A DNA stretch of 62,621 nt from Candidatus Colwellbacteria bacterium (GTDB lineage Bacteria > Patescibacteriota > Minisyncoccia > UBA6257 > Colwellbacteraceae), in the NCBI GenBank assembly GCA_028718505.1, contig JAQULQ010000001.1, positions 1 to 62,621 of the forward strand, in the 5' to 3' direction. The notes beneath the pieces are model-generated. The model saw nothing but the letters and a program-made list of their open reading frames with translations, was not told the DNA's origin and did no database searches. Positions within the stretch are counted from its first letter, which is position 1. The number at the start of each line of letters is the position of its first letter. The position numbers were made by a program, and so were the translations under genes. Of this stretch, positions 11,671 through 40,918 are shown in pieces.

Positions 11671-11721
11671 AGAGCGCCTTGCTTGGGAAAATGTTTAATG
11701 ATATTCTTGGGCTCGCGACTT

Positions 11722-12264
11722 ATGGAAGCAGCGAAAACTATAAAACCTGGGCATCAAGCACCAGATGAGCCGGCGGAGGCAGCCGTTGAGGTGCTTGACC
11801 CCGAAGAAGCGAGATCTATGCAGGAGATGATGGAGCTTGGGATTTTTTACGGACGTTCGAAATCACGTACTAATCCCAAAATGAAGCCTTTTATCGTCAA
11901 TAATCGGTCTGGCTTCGGTGTTATCAATCTCAGAAAAACCTATGCTGCCTTGCAAAAATTAGACGTGGTGATAGCGGATACCGTGCAGAAGCAGGGACTT
12001 ATTCTACTGGTTGGTACCAGTCCGTCAGTTAAGAGTGTGGTAAAAGAGACGGCGGATGAGCTTGGACTCCCATACGTAACCGAGCGCTGGCTCGGAGGAA
12101 CCCTTACCAACTTTGACACTATTTCGAAAAGGATCAGATACTTCAGAAAGCTCAGAGAAGATAAAGCGAGCGGGAGCTTGCTAAATATACAAAGAAAGAA
12201 CAGCTTAAACTTGAGAGAGAGATGTTCAAGCTCGAGAAACTTTTCGGCGGTATTAGCAGTTTAG
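11722..12264 (+). CDS. rpsB: 30S ribosomal protein S2, N-terminal fragment (frame broken near 12172-12176)
   Basis: LGIFYGRSKSRTNPKMKPFIV...ERWLGGTLTNF is the S2 core. S2 similarity is lost after ...REDKASG and the out-of-frame tail runs to a stop at 12264. Start is uncertain (TTG 11683, ATG 11722 or ATG 11818). Confidence 0.85.
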   Translation: MEAAKTIKPGHQAPDEPAEAAVEVLDPEEARSMQEMMELGIFYGRSKSRTNPKMKPFIVNNRSGFGVINLRKTYAALQKLDVVIADTVQKQGLILLVGTSPSVKSVVKETADELGLPYVTERWLGGTLTNFDTISKRIRYFRKLREDKASGSLLNIQRKNSLNLRERCSSSRNFSAVLAV

Positions 12265-12557
12265 ACAAGATCCCGGCGTTGGTGTTCGTAGCCGATCTCA
12301 GAAACAATGCTCTAGCCGCTAAAGAAGCAAGAGAGGTGGGTGTAAAAGTTATTGGTATTTTGAATACGGACGCTAATCCGGATTTGGTTGATTATGGTAT
12401 CCCAGCCAATGATAGAAATAGAAAAGGGATGGAGTTTCTAATGAATAAATTAAAGACTGCCATTCAGAACGCGAGGTTGAAAGAGCCCGCTATCAAGGTG
12501 GATACGGAAAAGCCGGTCACGAAGGTGAGGGCCGAAAATACAGATAAGAAAAAATAG
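12222..12557 (+). CDS. rpsB: 30S ribosomal protein S2, C-terminal fragment (S2-like reading already begins at 12174 in this frame)
   Basis: This frame reads ELAKYTKKEQLKLEREMFKLEKLFGGISSLDKIPALVFVADL...GILNTDANPDLVDYGIPANDRN, which is the S2 C-terminal half. Confidence 0.85.
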   Translation: MFKLEKLFGGISSLDKIPALVFVADLRNNALAAKEAREVGVKVIGILNTDANPDLVDYGIPANDRNRKGMEFLMNKLKTAIQNARLKEPAIKVDTEKPVTKVRAENTDKKK

Positions 12558-13285: not shown

Positions 13286-13351
13286 GGAATCCAAGCGTTG
13301 TGTTGCTTGAACGGAGCCCGATCCTTGTTTAAACTTGTTTTAGTCGTACCT

Positions 13352-13435
13352 GCATGGGTGGCGGAGCGGTCAATCGCACCAGACTGTAAATCTGGCGGCC
13401 TTGTGCCTACGGGGGTTCGAATCCCTCCCCATGCA
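13352..13435 (+). tRNA. tRNA-Tyr (GTA), class II with long variable arm, CCA not encoded
   Basis: Acceptor GCATGGG/CCCATGC, anticodon arm CCAGA-CTGTAAA-TCTGG, variable arm GGC-CTTGT-GCC, T arm GGGGG-TTCGAAT-CCCTC. Confidence 0.9.
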
Positions 13436-13541
13436 CACTTCGACGCACTGCGTTCGCTCAGTGCAAGCGTCAAGAAGGGGAATCTGGCGCGGGATGGATG
13501 TCTTGCCCCGAGCTCGTCGGAGGGAATCCCTCCCTATGCAC
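13436..13541 (+). repeat. structured module attached to the tRNA-Tyr 3' end, ending in a duplicate of the tRNA T-arm/acceptor 3' strand
   Basis: 13419-13436 GAATCCCTCCCCATGCAC is repeated at 13524-13541 GAATCCCTCCCTATGCAC. Internal hairpin GCACTG/CAGTGC. Homologous to 20871-20975. Confidence 0.7.
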
Positions 13542-13628
13542 CCCTGAACCGGAGCTGTTTCACAACACGGTTTAGGATAGGTGTGAACCATACTATGTTC
13601 TGGCTCACGCCACCCTAAACCAGAGTCG

Positions 13629-13790
13629 TTCGCCACCAAGACGAAATCATTCTATGATTTCATCGGGTGCCGTCGCTCGAAGCGCAGTTTGAAAGATTCG
13701 CCACCAAGAGAAAACTACAGAGTAGTTTTCTCGGGATGGCATCGCTCGAAACACAGATATAAAACAAGTTTTATATCTGGTTTCTCGCTC
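13629..13790 (+). repeat. tandem ~68-nt repeats, each an acceptor-stem-like minihelix of tRNA-Thr(TGT), plus a third hairpin
   Basis: TTCGCCACCAAGA at 13629 and 13697 (13/13). TCGCTCGAA at 13673 and 13742. Perfect but different hairpins at 13643-13661, 13710-13730 and 13754-13779. Confidence 0.75.
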
Positions 13791-13864
13791 GCCACCTTAG
13801 CTCAGCTGGCCAGAGCAACAGTTTTGTAAACTGTGGGTCCCCGGTTCGAATCCGGGAGGTGGCT
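13791..13864 (+). tRNA. tRNA-Thr (TGT)
   Basis: Acceptor GCCACCT/AGGTGGC, anticodon arm ACAGT-TTTGTAA-ACTGT, T arm CCCGG-TTCGAAT-CCGGG. Confidence 0.9.
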
Positions 13865-20798: not shown

Positions 20799-20870
20799 GG
20801 CCCTGTCGTCTAGAGGCTAGGACGCCGCCCTCTCACGGCGGAAACCGGGGTTCGATTCCCCGTGGGGTCA
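20799..20870 (+). tRNA. tRNA-Glu (CTC)
   Basis: Acceptor GGCCCTG/TGGGGTC (three G-U pairs), GTCTAGAGG D arm, anticodon arm CCGCC-CTCTCAC-GGCGG, T arm CGGGG-TTCGATT-CCCCG. Confidence 0.85.
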
Positions 20871-20975
20871 CACTTCGATTCGCGATGCTCACTCAGTGCG
20901 AGCATTCGCATCGAGGTTAGGAATAAGGGAATCTTTTGTTCTGAGCGTAGTCGAAGGAATTCCCCGTGGAGTCAC
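20871..20975 (+). repeat. structured module attached to the tRNA-Glu 3' end, ending in a duplicate of the tRNA T-arm/acceptor 3' strand
   Basis: 20855-20871 ATTCCCCGTGGGGTCAC is repeated at 20959-20975 ATTCCCCGTGGAGTCAC. Same CACTTCGA start, same CTCAGTGC loop offset (+21) and same GGGAATCT box as 13436-13541. Confidence 0.7.
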
Positions 20976-20980
20976 CAGAA

Positions 20981-21952
20981 ATGATGGAAAAAAATATTCG
21001 TGAATATGCCCGGCAGTTCGCCTATGAACCCGAGGTTAAGAATGCCGATAAGCTCGGTGAGTTTGAAACCGTTGTGATCGGGGGTATGGGTGGTTCTGGG
21101 CTGGTGGCCGGCGTCTTAAGGGCTATTAAACCCTCCCTGGATGTGGCCGTCCATCATGAGTATGGCTTGCCTCAATTCGCCGATAAAGACAAAGAAAAGC
21201 GTCTTTTTATAGCTATCTCACATTCTGGCAACACCGAAGAAGTCGTTGATTTTATGAACACGGCCGTCAGTCAAGGACTGCAGACTGCTGTCGTTGCATC
21301 CCACGGAAAGCTGCTTGAACTAGCTCAGCAAAATGGCCTACCCCATATCACCCTCCCCGCTGACGATATTCAGCCGCGCATGGCACTAGGCTATATGCTG
21401 CGCGCTGTTCTAAAACTGATCAAAGAAGAAGATCTTTTCTCAGAGACGGGTAAACTTACAGATAACCTGAAACCGACGGAGCTTGAACCGCACGGAAGGA
21501 GGTTGGCGGAGGCGGTCATTAATAGAATACCCATTATCTATGCCTCCCGTTCTAATCAAATTCTTGCCTATAACTGGAAAATAAGGTTTAACGAAACTGC
21601 AAAAGTCCCCGCGTTCTTTAATACCTTTCCCGAGTTAAACCATAACGAGATACAGGGCTTCGGTACCCACGAGGGCAGCCAAGTCTTGTCTGAGAAAATG
21701 AGCTTCATTTTTTTGGAAGACGACTCAGACCACCAACGTATTAAAAGGAGAATGGACATTACGGCTGCCATGTATAAGAAATTTGGACTGCCAGTGGAAC
21801 GTATCGGTCTTGAGGGCGGAACTAGGCTGGAGAAGATCTTTAATACGATCATATTGGGGGACTGGACGGCCTATCACGCGGCTCTGAAATATGGTGCTGA
21901 ACTGGAATCTGTTCCTGGAATCGACGAATTTAAGCGAGCCCTCGGTGCTTAA
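20981..21952 (+). CDS. bifunctional phosphoglucose/phosphomannose isomerase (SIS domain)
   Basis: SIS motif VIGGMGGSGL, ISHSGNTEE, and C-terminal FPELNHNE motif of the PGI/PMI family. Start is ATG 20981 or GTG 20966. Confidence 0.8.
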   Translation: MMEKNIREYARQFAYEPEVKNADKLGEFETVVIGGMGGSGLVAGVLRAIKPSLDVAVHHEYGLPQFADKDKEKRLFIAISHSGNTEEVVDFMNTAVSQGLQTAVVASHGKLLELAQQNGLPHITLPADDIQPRMALGYMLRAVLKLIKEEDLFSETGKLTDNLKPTELEPHGRRLAEAVINRIPIIYASRSNQILAYNWKIRFNETAKVPAFFNTFPELNHNEIQGFGTHEGSQVLSEKMSFIFLEDDSDHQRIKRRMDITAAMYKKFGLPVERIGLEGGTRLEKIFNTIILGDWTAYHAALKYGAELESVPGIDEFKRALGA

Positions 21953-35153: not shown

Positions 35154-36614
35154 ATGGATAACAACGAGAAAGACATAACCATTGTCGGCAAGACCAATTT
35201 TCGCAACCGAGAATCCTTCGGCATTAAGAAAATAGATCGCCGTAAGCACATCTACATCATGGGTAAAACAGGAACCGGCAAGAGCACCCTGATGGAGAAT
35301 ATGCTGATAGACGACATAAGAGAGGGCAAAGGAGTCGGCTTGATAGATCCCCACGGCGACTTTGCTGAGAGAGTTTTAAGTTTTGTGCCCGAAGAGAGGG
35401 TGGGCGACGTCGTCTACTTTGACCCCGGGGACGTCAATCATCCCATCGGTTTTAACCCGCTTGAAGCCGTTGGCAGTGAACACAGGCACTTGGTGGCTTC
35501 AGGTATCATGGGTGTCTTTAAAAAGGTTTGGCCGGATGTCTGGTCGAACCGTATGGAATACCTTTTGAACAATACACTCTTGGCTCTTCTGGAATACCCG
35601 GGCTCCACTCTTCTGGGAGTTATAAAGATGCTAACTGACAAGAAATACAGGGACAAGATAGTGACAGAACTGACTGACCCGGTAGTCAAGAATTTCTGGA
35701 CGAACGAATTCTCGAAATGGACAGACAGATATGCGGCTGAAGCTGTCCCGGCAGTACTTAACAAAATTGGCCAGCTAATCGCCAATCCGCTCATTAGACA
35801 CATCCTTGGGCAATCGCATTCTACCATCAACCTTAGGCAGATTATGGACGAGGGCAAGATCCTCATTATTAACCTCTCTAAAGGAAAAATAGGGGAAGAT
35901 AACTCAGCGCTTTTGGGAGCTATGTTTATCACTAAGTTCCAGATGGCTGCTATGAGCAGGATAGATATTATAAACGAAGAAGACAGACGTGATTTTTATC
36001 TGTATATCGATGAATTCCAGAATTTCTCGACCGATTCATTTGCCGATATTCTCTCCGAGGCCAGAAAGTACCATCTAAGCCTGGTTTTAGTTAATCAATA
36101 CTTGGGGCAGTTGGTTGATCCCGTGACCAGGAGTAGTAAGGTCCGAGACGCCATTTTTGGTAACGTCGGCACCATCGTTACTTTCAGGATCGGAGCAGAA
36201 GATTCCGAATTTCTAGAGCTTGAGTTCGAGCCGGAGTTTACAGCTAATGATTTGGTGAACCTGCCGCTTCATAAGATGTATATCAAGCTGATGATAGACG
36301 GAGTGGCGTCTAAGCCATTCTCGGCTGATACCTTTCCTCCGCATCAACCCGGAGAAATAAGCTATGCGGATATTATCGTAGAAAACAGCCGGGAAAAATA
36401 CGGTGTTCCAATCAAGGAAGTTGAGGAAAAAATAGGCAGTGAATATATAGAGGCCGACAAGATAGTTGAGGAACGTACTAGGAGACGAGGTGAGAGCGGC
36501 CTGAGGGTTCTCAGAGAAGAGCCAGCCCTAAAGAAAAAGAAAGAGATCGATAAAAACAAGCTAAGGGAGGCTCTCGGGTCTTCTCTGCCGAAAGACGAAG
36601 GTGCTGGGGATTAA
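35154..36614 (+). CDS. TraD/VirD4-like (type IV coupling protein-like) P-loop ATPase without a TM domain
   Basis: Walker A IMGKTGTGKST and Walker B FYLYIDEFQNF, with the TraG/TraD C-terminal-type layout. The lysine/glutamate-rich tail is disordered-looking. Confidence 0.75.
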   Translation: MDNNEKDITIVGKTNFRNRESFGIKKIDRRKHIYIMGKTGTGKSTLMENMLIDDIREGKGVGLIDPHGDFAERVLSFVPEERVGDVVYFDPGDVNHPIGFNPLEAVGSEHRHLVASGIMGVFKKVWPDVWSNRMEYLLNNTLLALLEYPGSTLLGVIKMLTDKKYRDKIVTELTDPVVKNFWTNEFSKWTDRYAAEAVPAVLNKIGQLIANPLIRHILGQSHSTINLRQIMDEGKILIINLSKGKIGEDNSALLGAMFITKFQMAAMSRIDIINEEDRRDFYLYIDEFQNFSTDSFADILSEARKYHLSLVLVNQYLGQLVDPVTRSSKVRDAIFGNVGTIVTFRIGAEDSEFLELEFEPEFTANDLVNLPLHKMYIKLMIDGVASKPFSADTFPPHQPGEISYADIIVENSREKYGVPIKEVEEKIGSEYIEADKIVEERTRRRGESGLRVLREEPALKKKKEIDKNKLREALGSSLPKDEGAGD

Positions 36615-38814: not shown

Positions 38815-40101
38815 ATGCCCTTATTCGATAAAGCTTTTTATTTTCCCTTATTTTTTATTTTGGGTGTGGGAGCTGCGGGTTTCGGAATACGGATTTGGTT
38901 GAGTCTCATTTTCGCTGCGATCGTCGGATATTTTATCTTCTCGTTCAGGCCCAAAAGGGTTTTGGTATTCGTCCTAATCTGTTTTGCTGGATACTTTTAC
39001 CACGACCTCTACGTTGTTCTTCGCTCACACTCGGTTCCCCTAGGGGAAGAGCGAGTCTATGTCGGTTTAGTGGTCGACCAGCCTGAATTTGGCCTTAAAA
39101 CAACCCTTCTTGATATCGCTCTTCAAAAACCGAATGAGGGTATGTTGCGAGTGTACTCTTCCTCGACAGAGAACATCCAATACGGAGACATTATAAGTTT
39201 TCAGGGAGTAGTCGAAGAGCAGACTGCAGAGACATATACGGTTGCCTTTCCTCAAAGTATTACAGTTTTAGAACGGCAAAGGGGCAATCCTGTTAAAAGT
39301 ATTCTCTTCAGTATAAAAACCAAGATCATAGATAATCTGCAGGCAGTGCTGGCCCCGGAAAAGTCCGCCCTTATGGCCGGAATTCTGTTGGGCGAGCGGG
39401 CTGAATTTACTCCAGAGCTTAAAGAAGCAATGCGTTTGAGCGGGACCACTCATATAGTGGCGTTGTCTGGTTACAATATAGCTATTTTAGTGACTACTCT
39501 TTCTCTTGCCCTGGCTTATATATGTGATCGGCGCAAAGCATTCTGGCTGAGTTTAATGGTCATCCCTTTATTTGTGGTCATGACCGGTGCGGAGGCATCG
39601 GTTGTACGAGCGGGCATAATGGGATTAGTCACCTTACTAGCTGTACAGCAGGAACGGATTTACAGCCCTCGCAACGCCATCACTTTGACTGCTCTCGCAA
39701 TGCTGATTTACGATCCGAGGTTGCTCAGTCGGGATGTTGGATTCCAGCTTTCTTTTGCCGCTCTTCTGGGAATGGTTTATTTTTATCCATGGATGATGCA
39801 GAAATTAAAGTGGCGAAGCGGCGGGTTTTTGAATTGGAGAACGAATGCTTTACAAACTCTCTCTGCACAGATAGCTGTGCTTCCGATTCTTCTGCCCACC
39901 TTTGGTTTTGTTGCTCCCACCGCACTTTTCGCGAACATTTTGATCTTGGAATTCGTTCCGCTTACAATGTTGGCCGGCTTTTTTACGGCCCTTAGCGGAT
40001 TCTTATCTTATTACCTCTCTATTTTTATTGGATGGGGAACCAACCTTTTATTAAGTTATGAGATATTTATCATTCAGCTTTTCGCTCTTAATTGGGCTTA
40101 A
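38815..40101 (+). CDS. comEC: ComEC/Rec2 DNA-uptake channel protein (DUF4131 + competence domain, no MBL domain)
   Basis: Polytopic membrane protein with GILLGER...SGTTHIVALSGYNIAIL competence-domain motif. Confidence 0.85.
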   Translation: MPLFDKAFYFPLFFILGVGAAGFGIRIWLSLIFAAIVGYFIFSFRPKRVLVFVLICFAGYFYHDLYVVLRSHSVPLGEERVYVGLVVDQPEFGLKTTLLDIALQKPNEGMLRVYSSSTENIQYGDIISFQGVVEEQTAETYTVAFPQSITVLERQRGNPVKSILFSIKTKIIDNLQAVLAPEKSALMAGILLGERAEFTPELKEAMRLSGTTHIVALSGYNIAILVTTLSLALAYICDRRKAFWLSLMVIPLFVVMTGAEASVVRAGIMGLVTLLAVQQERIYSPRNAITLTALAMLIYDPRLLSRDVGFQLSFAALLGMVYFYPWMMQKLKWRSGGFLNWRTNALQTLSAQIAVLPILLPTFGFVAPTALFANILILEFVPLTMLAGFFTALSGFLSYYLSIFIGWGTNLLLSYEIFIIQLFALNWA

Positions 40102-40918
40102 TATTGTTATCTGGGGCACGATTGCGGTGCATATGGCTTCTGCGGACCTGTGTCTTTATTTCCTCGACGTTGGACAAGGAGATAGCCAGCTTATCGATCT
40201 GCCAGAAGGCGGTAAAATTCTTATCGACGGGGGGCCTGGCAAGGAAACATCATTCCGATTAAGCAGGGTGCTCCCATGGTCAGACAAGTACATTGACTTG
40301 GTTCTCTTGACGCACGCTGAAAAGGACCATCTGGGTGGGTTGGGAGATGTAATAGCACGTCATCAAGTCGGTGCTTTTCTGTGGAGCGGCCAAGACGCCG
40401 TGACCGAGGATTGGGCGGAGCTTAGGAACATTTTATTCGAACGCAGTATACCCTTAGTACAAGTTGGCAAAGGAGATAGGATAATTCAGGGAGATAGCGT
40501 GCTGAGCGTTATATCTCCGGACCCAGAATTACCGGAGAACCCCAGTTCTAATGAGCGGTCGCTCGTCCTGATCTTAGAAAGCGAAGACGCAGCCGTACTC
40601 TATACAGCTGATATCAGTACAGAAATAGAAAATAAATTAACAGCAGAGAATGATGTAAACGTTGATATTCTGAAGGTAGCCCATCACGGTTCAAGGTTCT
40701 CCACCAGTCCCGCATTTTTAGAAGAGGCATCACCAGCCGTCGCCGTTATCGAGGTGGGAGATAATAATTATGACCACCCACATCGTACTACTCTGCAAAA
40801 GCTTGCAATGGCCGGGGCCAGTATTTATAGAACAGATATTAATGGGACCATTAGTCTTTTGATTCGAGACGGAAAGATCGGAGTAAAAGTAGAAAGACAA
40901 GCCGGGCAAAGTAATTGA
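40058..40918 (+). CDS. MBL-fold metallo-hydrolase corresponding to the ComEC C-terminal domain, encoded as a separate ORF
   Basis: N-terminal TM helix, FLDVGQGDS, LTHAEKDHLGG and VAHHGS motifs. Overlaps comEC by 44 nt in a different frame. Confidence 0.85.
   Translation: MRYLSFSFSLLIGLNIVIWGTIAVHMASADLCLYFLDVGQGDSQLIDLPEGGKILIDGGPGKETSFRLSRVLPWSDKYIDLVLLTHAEKDHLGGLGDVIARHQVGAFLWSGQDAVTEDWAELRNILFERSIPLVQVGKGDRIIQGDSVLSVISPDPELPENPSSNERSLVLILESEDAAVLYTADISTEIENKLTAENDVNVDILKVAHHGSRFSTSPAFLEEASPAVAVIEVGDNNYDHPHRTTLQKLAMAGASIYRTDINGTISLLIRDGKIGVKVERQAGQSN

Follow-up and report, generated by a model that had tools for sequence, protein, structure and literature searches.

A hairpin-forming module joined to tRNA gene ends in Patescibacteria, a candidate non-autonomous mobile element

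The tRNA-Tyr gene of a Candidatus Colwellbacteria bacterium (Patescibacteriota) is directly followed by a non-coding module of 87 nt that is closed by a second copy of the tRNA's own 3' part; the DNA in question, hereafter the window, is the stretch of 62,621 nt from position 1 to 62,621 of contig JAQULQ010000001.1 (assembly GCA_028718505.1, forward strand). The module is probably, with a chance roughly estimated at 0.55, a non-coding, non-autonomous, hairpin-forming mobile element specific for the termini of tRNA genes and part of a family widespread in Patescibacteria. Its relatives adjoin tRNA genes with exact junctions and have inverted-repeat ends, to which one subfamily adds a direct and an inverted copy of tRNA sequence; at corresponding loci of related genomes the element is absent, single, or in tandem, and the similarity among modules is incongruent with that among hosts.

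The tRNA-Tyr gene ends with the discriminator A13435 and with C13436, which is position 74, the CCA end not being encoded. The proximal repeat (a) spans the 3' half of the T-loop, the 3' strand of the T-stem, the 3' strand of the acceptor stem, the discriminator, and C74 (Table 1). Its recurrence behind the module had been reported in a first-pass annotation made from the letters of the window alone and is borne out by a repeat search; the single difference in the distal copy is a change of C68 to T that weakens its pairing with the 5' strand of the tRNA. As the same annotation proposed, the left motif CTTCGAC can pair either with the proximal GTCaaGAAG or with the distal GTCGGAG, and the minimum free energy (MFE) fold takes the proximal partner; this fold is no better than those of shuffled sequences (z = -0.29). 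Two further details did not hold: the hairpin GCACTG/CAGTGC is not the conserved one, which is instead a variable stem presenting the 7-nt CTCAGTG, and the supposed shared box GGGAATCT is an 8-mer present four times in the window against 3.3 expected by chance, is not kept in the Tyr orthologues (the relative L002 has GGAAAATTT), and is not a feature of the family. Searching the whole window with Rfam at the gathering thresholds yields only tRNAs and no family matching the module, and a search of 13340-13800 at E <= 10 puts no credible match on it, sX4 at 28 bits (threshold 70) merely spanning the tRNA; since these searches gave only tRNAs, the known ribozyme classes and a strand order like that of the hepatitis delta virus ribozyme, considered by eye, are unsupported.

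The homologous module claimed behind tRNA-Glu is real, and its terminal repeat, ATTCCCCGTGG[G/A]GTCAC, is indeed that tRNA's own sequence. The combination ACTTCGA-N(10-30)-CTCAGTGC has only two occurrences in the window, one in each module and both with a spacing of N13, where 0 are expected. Within the Glu module, ATCGAGGT is the equivalent of the proximal partner and compensates the C-to-T change in ACTTCGAT, and the region of the supposed box GGGAATCT provides the arm for pairing with the distal copy; the whole folds better than shuffled sequences on both strands (z = -2.5 and -3.4). Of the two repeat copies, the proximal one forms the better acceptor stem at both loci, so that the distal one is degenerate. 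Altogether, 2 of the 6 tRNAs of the window carry a module. As a separate observation, the distal tRNA-Glu copy contains, through one G-to-A substitution, a GGAG located 9 nt before the ATG at 20982 (window 20966-20985), the start of a SIS/bact-PGI_C gene, and the displaced tRNA fragment may now act as the ribosome-binding site of this gene.

Table 1. Coordinates of the tRNA genes, repeats, and module parts in the window
Feature	Position	Strand	Description
tRNA-Tyr (GTA)	13352..13436	+	ARAGORN 13352-13436; Rfam tRNA 13352-13435, 60.3 bits
Proximal repeat a, GAATCCCTCCCCATGCAC	13419..13436	+	tRNA-Tyr positions 57-74, part of the functional tRNA; repeat search
Tyr module, 87 nt between the repeats	13437..13523	+	starts with ACTTCGAC, CTCAGTGC after a 13-nt spacer, ends with CCCCGAGCTCGTCGGAGG
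Left terminal motif ACTTCGAC	13437..13444	+	near-invariant family-wide; adjoins tRNA position 74
Hairpin, variable stem CGTTCG/CAAGCG and conserved CTCAGTG (13457-13463)	13451..13469	+	stem differs among orthologues, loop fixed
Proximal partner GTC-aa-GAAG of the left motif	13469..13477	+	closes hairpin H1 in the MFE fold
Internal inverted copy a', GGGATGGAT	13491..13499	+	complementary to ATCCCTCCC of the distal repeat at 8/9 positions
Right terminal motif CCCCGAGCTCGTCGGAGG	13506..13523	+	family consensus CCYGAGC-N3-GTCGRRGG; inverted counterpart of the left end GCTCAG...CTTCGAC
Distal repeat a, GAATCCCTCCCTATGCAC	13524..13541	+	17/18 copy of tRNA-Tyr positions 57-74, offset 105
tRNA-Glu (CTC)	20799..20871	+	ARAGORN, Rfam; proximal repeat ATTCCCCGTGGGGTCAC at 20855-20871
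Glu module, 86 nt	20872..20957	+	a' arm GGGAAT at 20927-20932; right motif at 20939-20957
Distal copy of tRNA-Glu positions 58-74	20959..20975	+	16/17

The distribution of the family was examined in metagenome contigs with the pattern ACTTCGA-N13-CTCAGTG-N40-70-GTCGRRGG, for which the vicinity of a tRNA was not required; all the family statistics rest on contigs picked by this pattern, which fixes parts of both ends of the element. The scan yielded 114 loci with 105 distinct instances, 58 of which start at distance 0 from the 3' end of a tRNA, the junction being exact in every case (distances were measured from ARAGORN calls). Another four lie in mirror orientation directly against the 5' end of a tRNA (position 1), about 12 come after tRNA 3' fragments or contig edges, and roughly 20 are obvious chance matches in GC-rich coding DNA. 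The adjacency to tRNAs cannot be due to chance, because the scanned loci total 831 kb with 240 tRNAs; the adjoining tRNAs span 24 anticodon classes, and many copies sit in the spacers between two tRNA genes. Typical members are 75-81 nt long (about 78), lack a tRNA duplication, and have as consensus a C followed by ACTTCGACTCGCTTCGCTCGCTCAGTG(C/T)AA, a variable loop, GAGCGAG(G/T)CGAAGTG, YCCTGAGC-NNN-GTCGAAGG, and RCAY. Both window modules are divergent members of this tRNA-end family, since a profile hidden Markov model built from 33 typical members only, in an alignment that excluded the window modules' subfamily, matches them over the full length (Glu, E = 7.5e-11; Tyr, E = 3.7e-8) and matches nothing else in the window.

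No description of the family was returned by searches of the literature, whether by concept or by motif strings, which, together with the Rfam results, agrees with the earlier statement that no described family matches. When genome contigs were scanned with a pattern including GGGAATCT, one chance match was found in a Bacteroidetes coding region with no tRNA; this pattern is over-specific and uninformative on the wider family in GTDB genomes. Among tRNA genes without the element in the fetched loci (n=142), C is present at position 74 in 83%, a full CCA in 20%, and a C-A continuation in 39%; with 83% having C74 and only 20% having CCA, an insertion within the encoded CCA, between C74 and C75, is unsupported. 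On the minus strand of L112, near 2560-2680, a half-element of 29 nt, CCTTCGACAAGCTCAGGGCTTGGTCGCAC, lies between two tRNA genes and is associated with a 5-7-nt repeat of the last bases of the upstream tRNA (TCCGCAC / GTCGCAC).

The ends of the element are inverted repeats: the left ACTTCGAC...GCTCAG and the right CTGAGC-N3-GTCGAAGG are 99% complementary in 33 members, a value partly imposed by the search pattern, and one member (L010) has a perfect terminal inverted pair of 25 nt. The same sequences can alternatively fold into two adjacent hairpins, H1 and H2. H1 is formed by the left arm and the proximal ...CGAAGT in two registers that are inseparable (86.5% vs 86.2% paired), neither of which shows double compensatory changes. 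H2 corresponds to YCCT[GAGC-NNN-GTCGA]AGGR and covaries at pair 66-87 (CG 16, UA 12, UG 4); the CCY/RGG pairing covaries family-wide (T-A 60, C-G 9, exceptions 4). The comparison of G-U and A-C mismatches in H1, used as a strand-asymmetry test of RNA selection, reveals no asymmetry (16 vs 14); the two being equally common, there is no clear sign of selection on a helix of the sense-strand RNA, and a DNA palindrome would be expected to give equal counts. In 59 of 73 members, folding is better for the sense than for the antisense strand.

The window modules represent a subfamily of at least 18 members, 86-98 nt long, that carry a clean direct copy of 17-18 nt of tRNA positions 57/58-74. The tRNAs concerned are Tyr, Glu, Ser (two isoacceptors), Gln, Lys, Met, Leu, Ala, Arg, and Asp; the proposal that the element is conserved while its terminal repeat tracks the host tRNA can thus be generalised from two loci to at least 18 members and more than 10 tRNA types. 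These members also contain, just upstream of the right-end core, a tRNA-specific stretch (a') that is reverse-complementary to the beginning of the distal copy. In particular, a' and the distal copy read GTGGGAT and ATCCCAC in L075, GGACTAGGAT and ATCCTAGTCC in L061, GCGGGAG and CTCCCGC in L083, GGGAAT and ATTCCC in the window Glu module, and GGGAGGGAT and ATCCCTCCC, a perfect match, in L002; the window Tyr module, with GGGATGGAT, has one mismatch here and is mismatched also in CCY/RGG. The complementarity of a' to its own distal copy has a mean of 6.4 vs 4.7 +/- 1.1 to the copies of other members, and none of 5000 permutations reaches the observed mean. Where the distal copy has diverged from the tRNA (L096, L106, L035), a' tracks the copy and not the tRNA. 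Since a' pairs with the distal copy and follows its changes, the distal repeat is one arm of a T-arm-like hairpin having the right-end motif as its loop.

The four members at tRNA 5' ends consist of a partial copy of positions 1-11 or 1-15, the reversed module, and the intact tRNA, with duplications of 11-15 nt; these mirror-image copies are hard to reconcile with a function of the sense-strand RNA. The core idea drawn from the window stands, and what had gone unnoticed is that most members lack a duplication, that an inverted copy is present, and that mirror copies occur at 5' ends. Orphan units made of module and copy with no adjoining tRNA are found in L009 and L061. The latter (L061:1072-3640) comprises the module and a tRNA-Gln 3' fragment on a 12.8-kb contig with no tRNA, and is located ~1.1 kb from the two open reading frames (ORFs) of a split large serine recombinase, together with a DUF6883 gene and 30-nt direct repeats; this orphan unit may be the edge of an integrated element.

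The closest named homologues of the MurC encoded just downstream of the tRNA-Tyr locus are from Patescibacteria / Candidatus Colwellbacteria, and a look-up of the exact MurC protein had no match. Seven syntenic relatives, obtained through MurC homologues, share the gene order S2, EF-Ts, small ORF, tRNA-Tyr, tRNA-Thr, and MurC. The tRNA-Tyr site is empty in three of them, L006 (tRNA-Tyr ...CATGCAC, then CAT (3 nt), then tRNA-Thr), L124 (10-nt spacer), and L125 (3-nt spacer); it holds a single module with its copy in L002, L007, and L123, and two modules in tandem with a copy after each in L008. The tRNA-Glu site is filled in L002 and empty in L008. The comparison of these states indicates that the filled site is the empty one plus the module plus one duplicate of 17-18 nt, with clean boundaries. 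Tandem arrays of the module-copy-module-copy type are present in L008 and L070. At the same locus, the window has two overlapping ORFs (193 aa and 111 aa) at 11683-12557 where the syntenic relatives have one gene of 286-293 aa for ribosomal protein S2, which may be due to a frameshift or a sequencing error.

Host relationships were estimated from the amino-acid identity of 4 flanking genes (~890 aa) and compared with those of 6 modules. The window, L006, and L007 are the closest hosts (0.76-0.77), followed by L002 (0.70-0.71), L008 (0.65-0.67), L123 (0.59-0.62), and L124 and L125 (0.54-0.58), and fourfold-degenerate sites are at or near saturation (0.30-0.47). The modules of the window and L002 are identical at 0.87 (Tyr) and 0.88 (Glu), flanking coding DNA being at 0.60-0.78. 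The modules of L007 and L123 share 0.88 identity and those of the window and L007 only 0.74, though the last two are the closest pair of module-bearing hosts; L006, of the same host clade, is empty. The left half of the L007 Tyr module resembles the Glu type, so the modules are mosaic, and the Tyr and Glu modules of one genome have an identity of 0.65-0.69. Judged from these sequence comparisons, neither simple vertical decay nor a recent intragenomic burst fits the data, which point to a turnover of alleles, or to their horizontal movement, at a fixed site defined by the tRNA. Between the two kinds of explanation offered by the first-pass annotation, a mobile element and a functional RNA, the former is better supported, on account of the clean empty site, the tandem arrays, and the incongruence between modules and hosts.

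Entry of such a mobile element at the tRNA 3' end could follow two routes, either a trans-acting integrase cutting ~17-18 bp apart, at the T-loop and at position 74/75, or a recombination through the element's own tRNA-matching arm, in the manner of attP x attB. By either route the intact tRNA would be regenerated beside the left end and the partial copy moved to the right end. With the target recreated in the duplicated arm, arrays could grow, and recombination between the repeats would lead to clean loss. The element would be transcribed as a 3' trailer and removed during the maturation of the tRNA 3' end; the tRNA 3' end would be a safe haven because an element lying inside the tRNA transcription unit is trimmed at this step. 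The hairpin a'/a would keep the decoy 3' strand from competing with the acceptor and T stems of the tRNA.

Several observations weigh against this interpretation. Target duplication is absent in 43 of the 58 members at tRNA 3' ends, and a plain staggered-cut duplication does not explain the internal inverted copy. No transposase, integrase, reverse transcriptase, or Cas1 is found among the 20 non-obvious ORFs of the window, which encode housekeeping proteins, ComEC, and an ATPase similar to type IV secretion coupling proteins; no long version with an ORF occurs among the 114 loci, complete genomes not having been searched, and a single orphan module, that of L061, lies near a split large serine recombinase. 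A broad pattern gave 0 matches in the viral contigs of IMG/VR. In the alignment of typical members the left 28 nt are almost invariant and the right arm is variable, which suggests that something reads the sequence itself; the divergence of the copies within one genome (Tyr vs Glu) excludes a recent burst, and the 87-88% identity of orthologous modules could equally mean purifying selection at the level of the host.

The functional-RNA readings left alongside by the first-pass annotation (processing signal, decoy, and folding switch) are a serious rival, supported chiefly by the strong conservation and the exact junction; the modules are far more conserved than neutral sites, but their stems covary little and show no strand asymmetry. 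In their general form the module, whether of mobile origin or not, is a structured 3' trailer RNA useful to the host, co-transcribed with the tRNA and acting in cis, an explanation that is tentative and distinctly less probable than the mobile element. Possible roles are those of a hairpin for processing or insulation in tRNA clusters, or of a minihelix-like mimic of T-arm and acceptor (a'/a plus the free acceptor 3' strand) that RNase Z, RNase P, or the CCA-adding enzyme might recognise, or that might compete as a folding switch for the tRNA 5' acceptor strand. The module identity of 0.87-0.88 against saturated fourfold sites is in line with such a function, as are the exact junction in 58 cases, the covariation in H2 and CCY/RGG, the compensatory changes in a'/a, the better folding of the sense strand, the replacement of C.A by U.G seen in the CTCAGTG hairpin when the window and L002 are compared, and the many copies in tRNA-tRNA spacers, which must therefore be transcribed. 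On the other hand, the module is dispensable, being missing from L006, L124, and L125 and, in its Glu copy, from L008, and most tRNAs of the window do without it; copies upstream of tRNAs would yield antisense RNA, H1 has no double compensatory changes and equal G-U and A-C mismatches, the window Tyr module is no more stable than shuffles and is mismatched in a' and CCY/RGG, module similarity is at odds with the host tree, and Rfam gives no match. It is doubtful, and less probable still, that the module is a self-targeting homing cassette with no dedicated transposase, in which the hairpin a'/a serves as a re-writable address matching one tRNA 3' end; this would be a new class of tRNA-addressed mobile element, enzyme-free or driven by host enzymes. 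Such a cassette could move as DNA, through host recombination of taken-up DNA with the tRNA gene supplying the homology, a route for which the window encodes ComEC, or through RNA: an antisense transcript of the locus has two sites complementary to the last 18 nt of the tRNA, so that a tRNA ending at C74 could prime a tRNA-module-a copy, formally like a retroviral primer-binding site. As to the genes themselves, a TraG/TrwB-like type IV coupling ATPase and the competence protein ComEC with a metallo-beta-lactamase domain are encoded among housekeeping genes at window 35154-36614 and 38815-40918, and both bear on DNA uptake in the host.

The two remaining explanations regard the unit as a remnant. 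An origin as the relic (attL...attR) of a larger integrase-bearing island or prophage, integrated between the T-loop and the tRNA's 3' end and having lost its interior, is unlikely: an identity block from T-loop to 3' end is the classic sign of tRNA-integrating elements, of which it is reportedly typical, and orphan units occur in L061 and L009, the former ~1.1 kb from the split recombinase, but independent deletions would not leave the same unit of 86-91 nt with conserved ends at more than 18 loci and more than 10 tRNA types. Moreover, typical members have no repeats at all, no instance has coding capacity between its ends, and serine recombinases, to our knowledge, do not produce 18-bp duplications. 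A tandem tRNA duplicate whose 5' two-thirds have drifted would account for a distal segment that is tRNA-derived and slightly degenerate, and for a', similar to a T-stem 5' strand, upstream of it; this origin is nevertheless highly improbable, and effectively refuted by the homology of the 87-nt interior between the Tyr and Glu loci and with ~70 elements behind unrelated tRNAs. In fact, the module has no D or anticodon arm, neither ARAGORN nor Rfam at E <= 10 gives a tRNA match on 13437-13541, a' reaches the complement of loop positions 59-60 and sometimes of the acceptor, unlike a tRNA copy, and empty sites have clean boundaries.

The element shares with MITEs (miniature inverted-repeat transposable elements) and with REPINs, the doublets of repetitive extragenic palindromes (REP) mobilised by RAYT transposases, a short length (~75-105 nt here), the non-coding and multi-copy nature, inverted-repeat ends, a variable interior, a long hairpin, and the lack of an encoded enzyme. 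It differs in joining the ends of tRNA genes exactly, in containing an inverted copy of the target, and in a duplication that is longer than usual for a MITE in the subfamily (17-18 nt in 18 members; 11-15 nt in the 5'-end type) and mostly missing elsewhere (43/58). No cognate transposase or RAYT was found, nor any autonomous partner with matching ends among the 114 loci and the 20 window ORFs, a search that did not extend to complete genomes. With regard to REPINs, a two-arm hairpin is present, but its arms are unequal (left 28 nt, right 18 nt) and it has no GTAG-type head motif. The integrative elements using tRNA genes as attB, which include tyrosine-integrase islands and phages and cis-mobilizable elements, likewise display direct repeats of the T-loop-to-3'-end segment at both ends, an intact tRNA on one side and a partial copy on the other, tandem accretion, and element lineages specific for tRNA types; in contrast, the unit described here has only 86-87 nt of non-coding DNA between the repeats, with no integrase or cargo gene, the same backbone occurs next to more than 10 types of tRNA, each type having repeats of its own, and many relatives have no repeats.

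The closest documented insertion signature, by analogy, is that of casposons, which insert at the 3' end of tRNA genes with the T-loop region as part of the target and have a target duplication of 14-15 bp, terminal inverted repeats, and tandem copies sharing the duplication (PMC5137440; PMC4779613). The long duplication at the tRNA 3' end (17-18 nt) and its reuse in tandem (L008 and L070) are found here too. Casposons measure kilobases and carry genes for Cas1 and PolB, whereas this element has no coding capacity and no Cas1 appears among the window ORFs checked; their duplication is mostly downstream of the tRNA, with a 5-bp overlap in A. boonei, and here it is wholly inside it (positions 57-74). 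We know of no casposon in Patescibacteria. Rickettsia palindromic elements (RPEs) are similarly small palindromes spread lineage-wide in a reduced genome, intergenic, next to or in RNA genes, and in frame in protein genes; they belong to a different sequence family and host phylum, are not specific for tRNA ends, and have no direct or inverted copies of the target. The likeness extends to units related to this family that lie inside fmt. These units, with ends CCTTCGAC...GCTCAGGG / CCCGAGC-NNN-GTCGAGGG, are found in L011:1500-1600 and in L030 (minus strand, near 300-420) within the apparent fmt coding sequence, after a ...NPEPGV(F/W)T motif, and recall in-frame RPEs. Group IIC introns, inserting after terminator or attC hairpins, also seem to choose the target by its folded structure, here the end of an acceptor/T-arm-like hairpin, and not by a fixed sequence; no intron RNA domain structure, reverse transcriptase, or splicing signature is seen in the family. 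The hairpin a'/a, predicted from sequence alone, is T-arm-like, which recalls the mitochondrial t-element.

Other small units accompany the Tyr module in the window. Directly 3' of the distal tRNA-Tyr copy, at 13542-13628, a second type of module contains two hairpins, CCTGAAC.../...GTTTAGG and GGTGTGAACC/GGCTCACGCC, and is flanked by the two copies of an imperfect direct repeat of 15 nt, CCTGAACCGGAGCTG (13543-13557) and CCTAAACCAGAGTCG (13614-13628), which agree at 11/15 positions (15/16 in L007); this module is kept in L002, L007, and L123, whereas L006 and L008 lack it. With its flanking repeat, long flanking duplications seem to be general for small insertions in this lineage. Further on, 13626-13790 contains two tandem units of ~69 nt, each composed of TTCGCCACCAAGA, a variable hairpin, and TCGGG(T/A)G(C/G)C(G/A)TCGCTCGAA(G/A)C(G/A)CAG, with a third hairpin after them. 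The six bases GCCACC, with which the downstream tRNA-Thr begins (13791), are present in each unit and are accompanied by their complement GGTGCC/GATGGC in a long hairpin; the hairpin stems are wholly different between the units, L007/L031 has one such unit, and the L002 sequence is unalignable.

Genomes of the candidate phyla radiation (CPR), or Patescibacteria, are among the most streamlined and are thought to be poor in repetitive or mobile DNA. A family of 75-105 nt recognising the ends of essentially any tRNA gene falls outside current annotation, as represented by Rfam and by the catalogues of MITEs and insertion sequences. If the conservation of the modules reflects function, they would constitute a new RNA element of tRNA precursors. 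If they are mobile, they would offer a handle on the movement of DNA among uncultivated ultra-small bacteria, would account for the long tRNA spacers and odd "partial tRNA" calls of CPR assemblies, and may indicate a hitherto unrecognised integrase that has a ruler of ~18 bp, or else homing driven by recombination.

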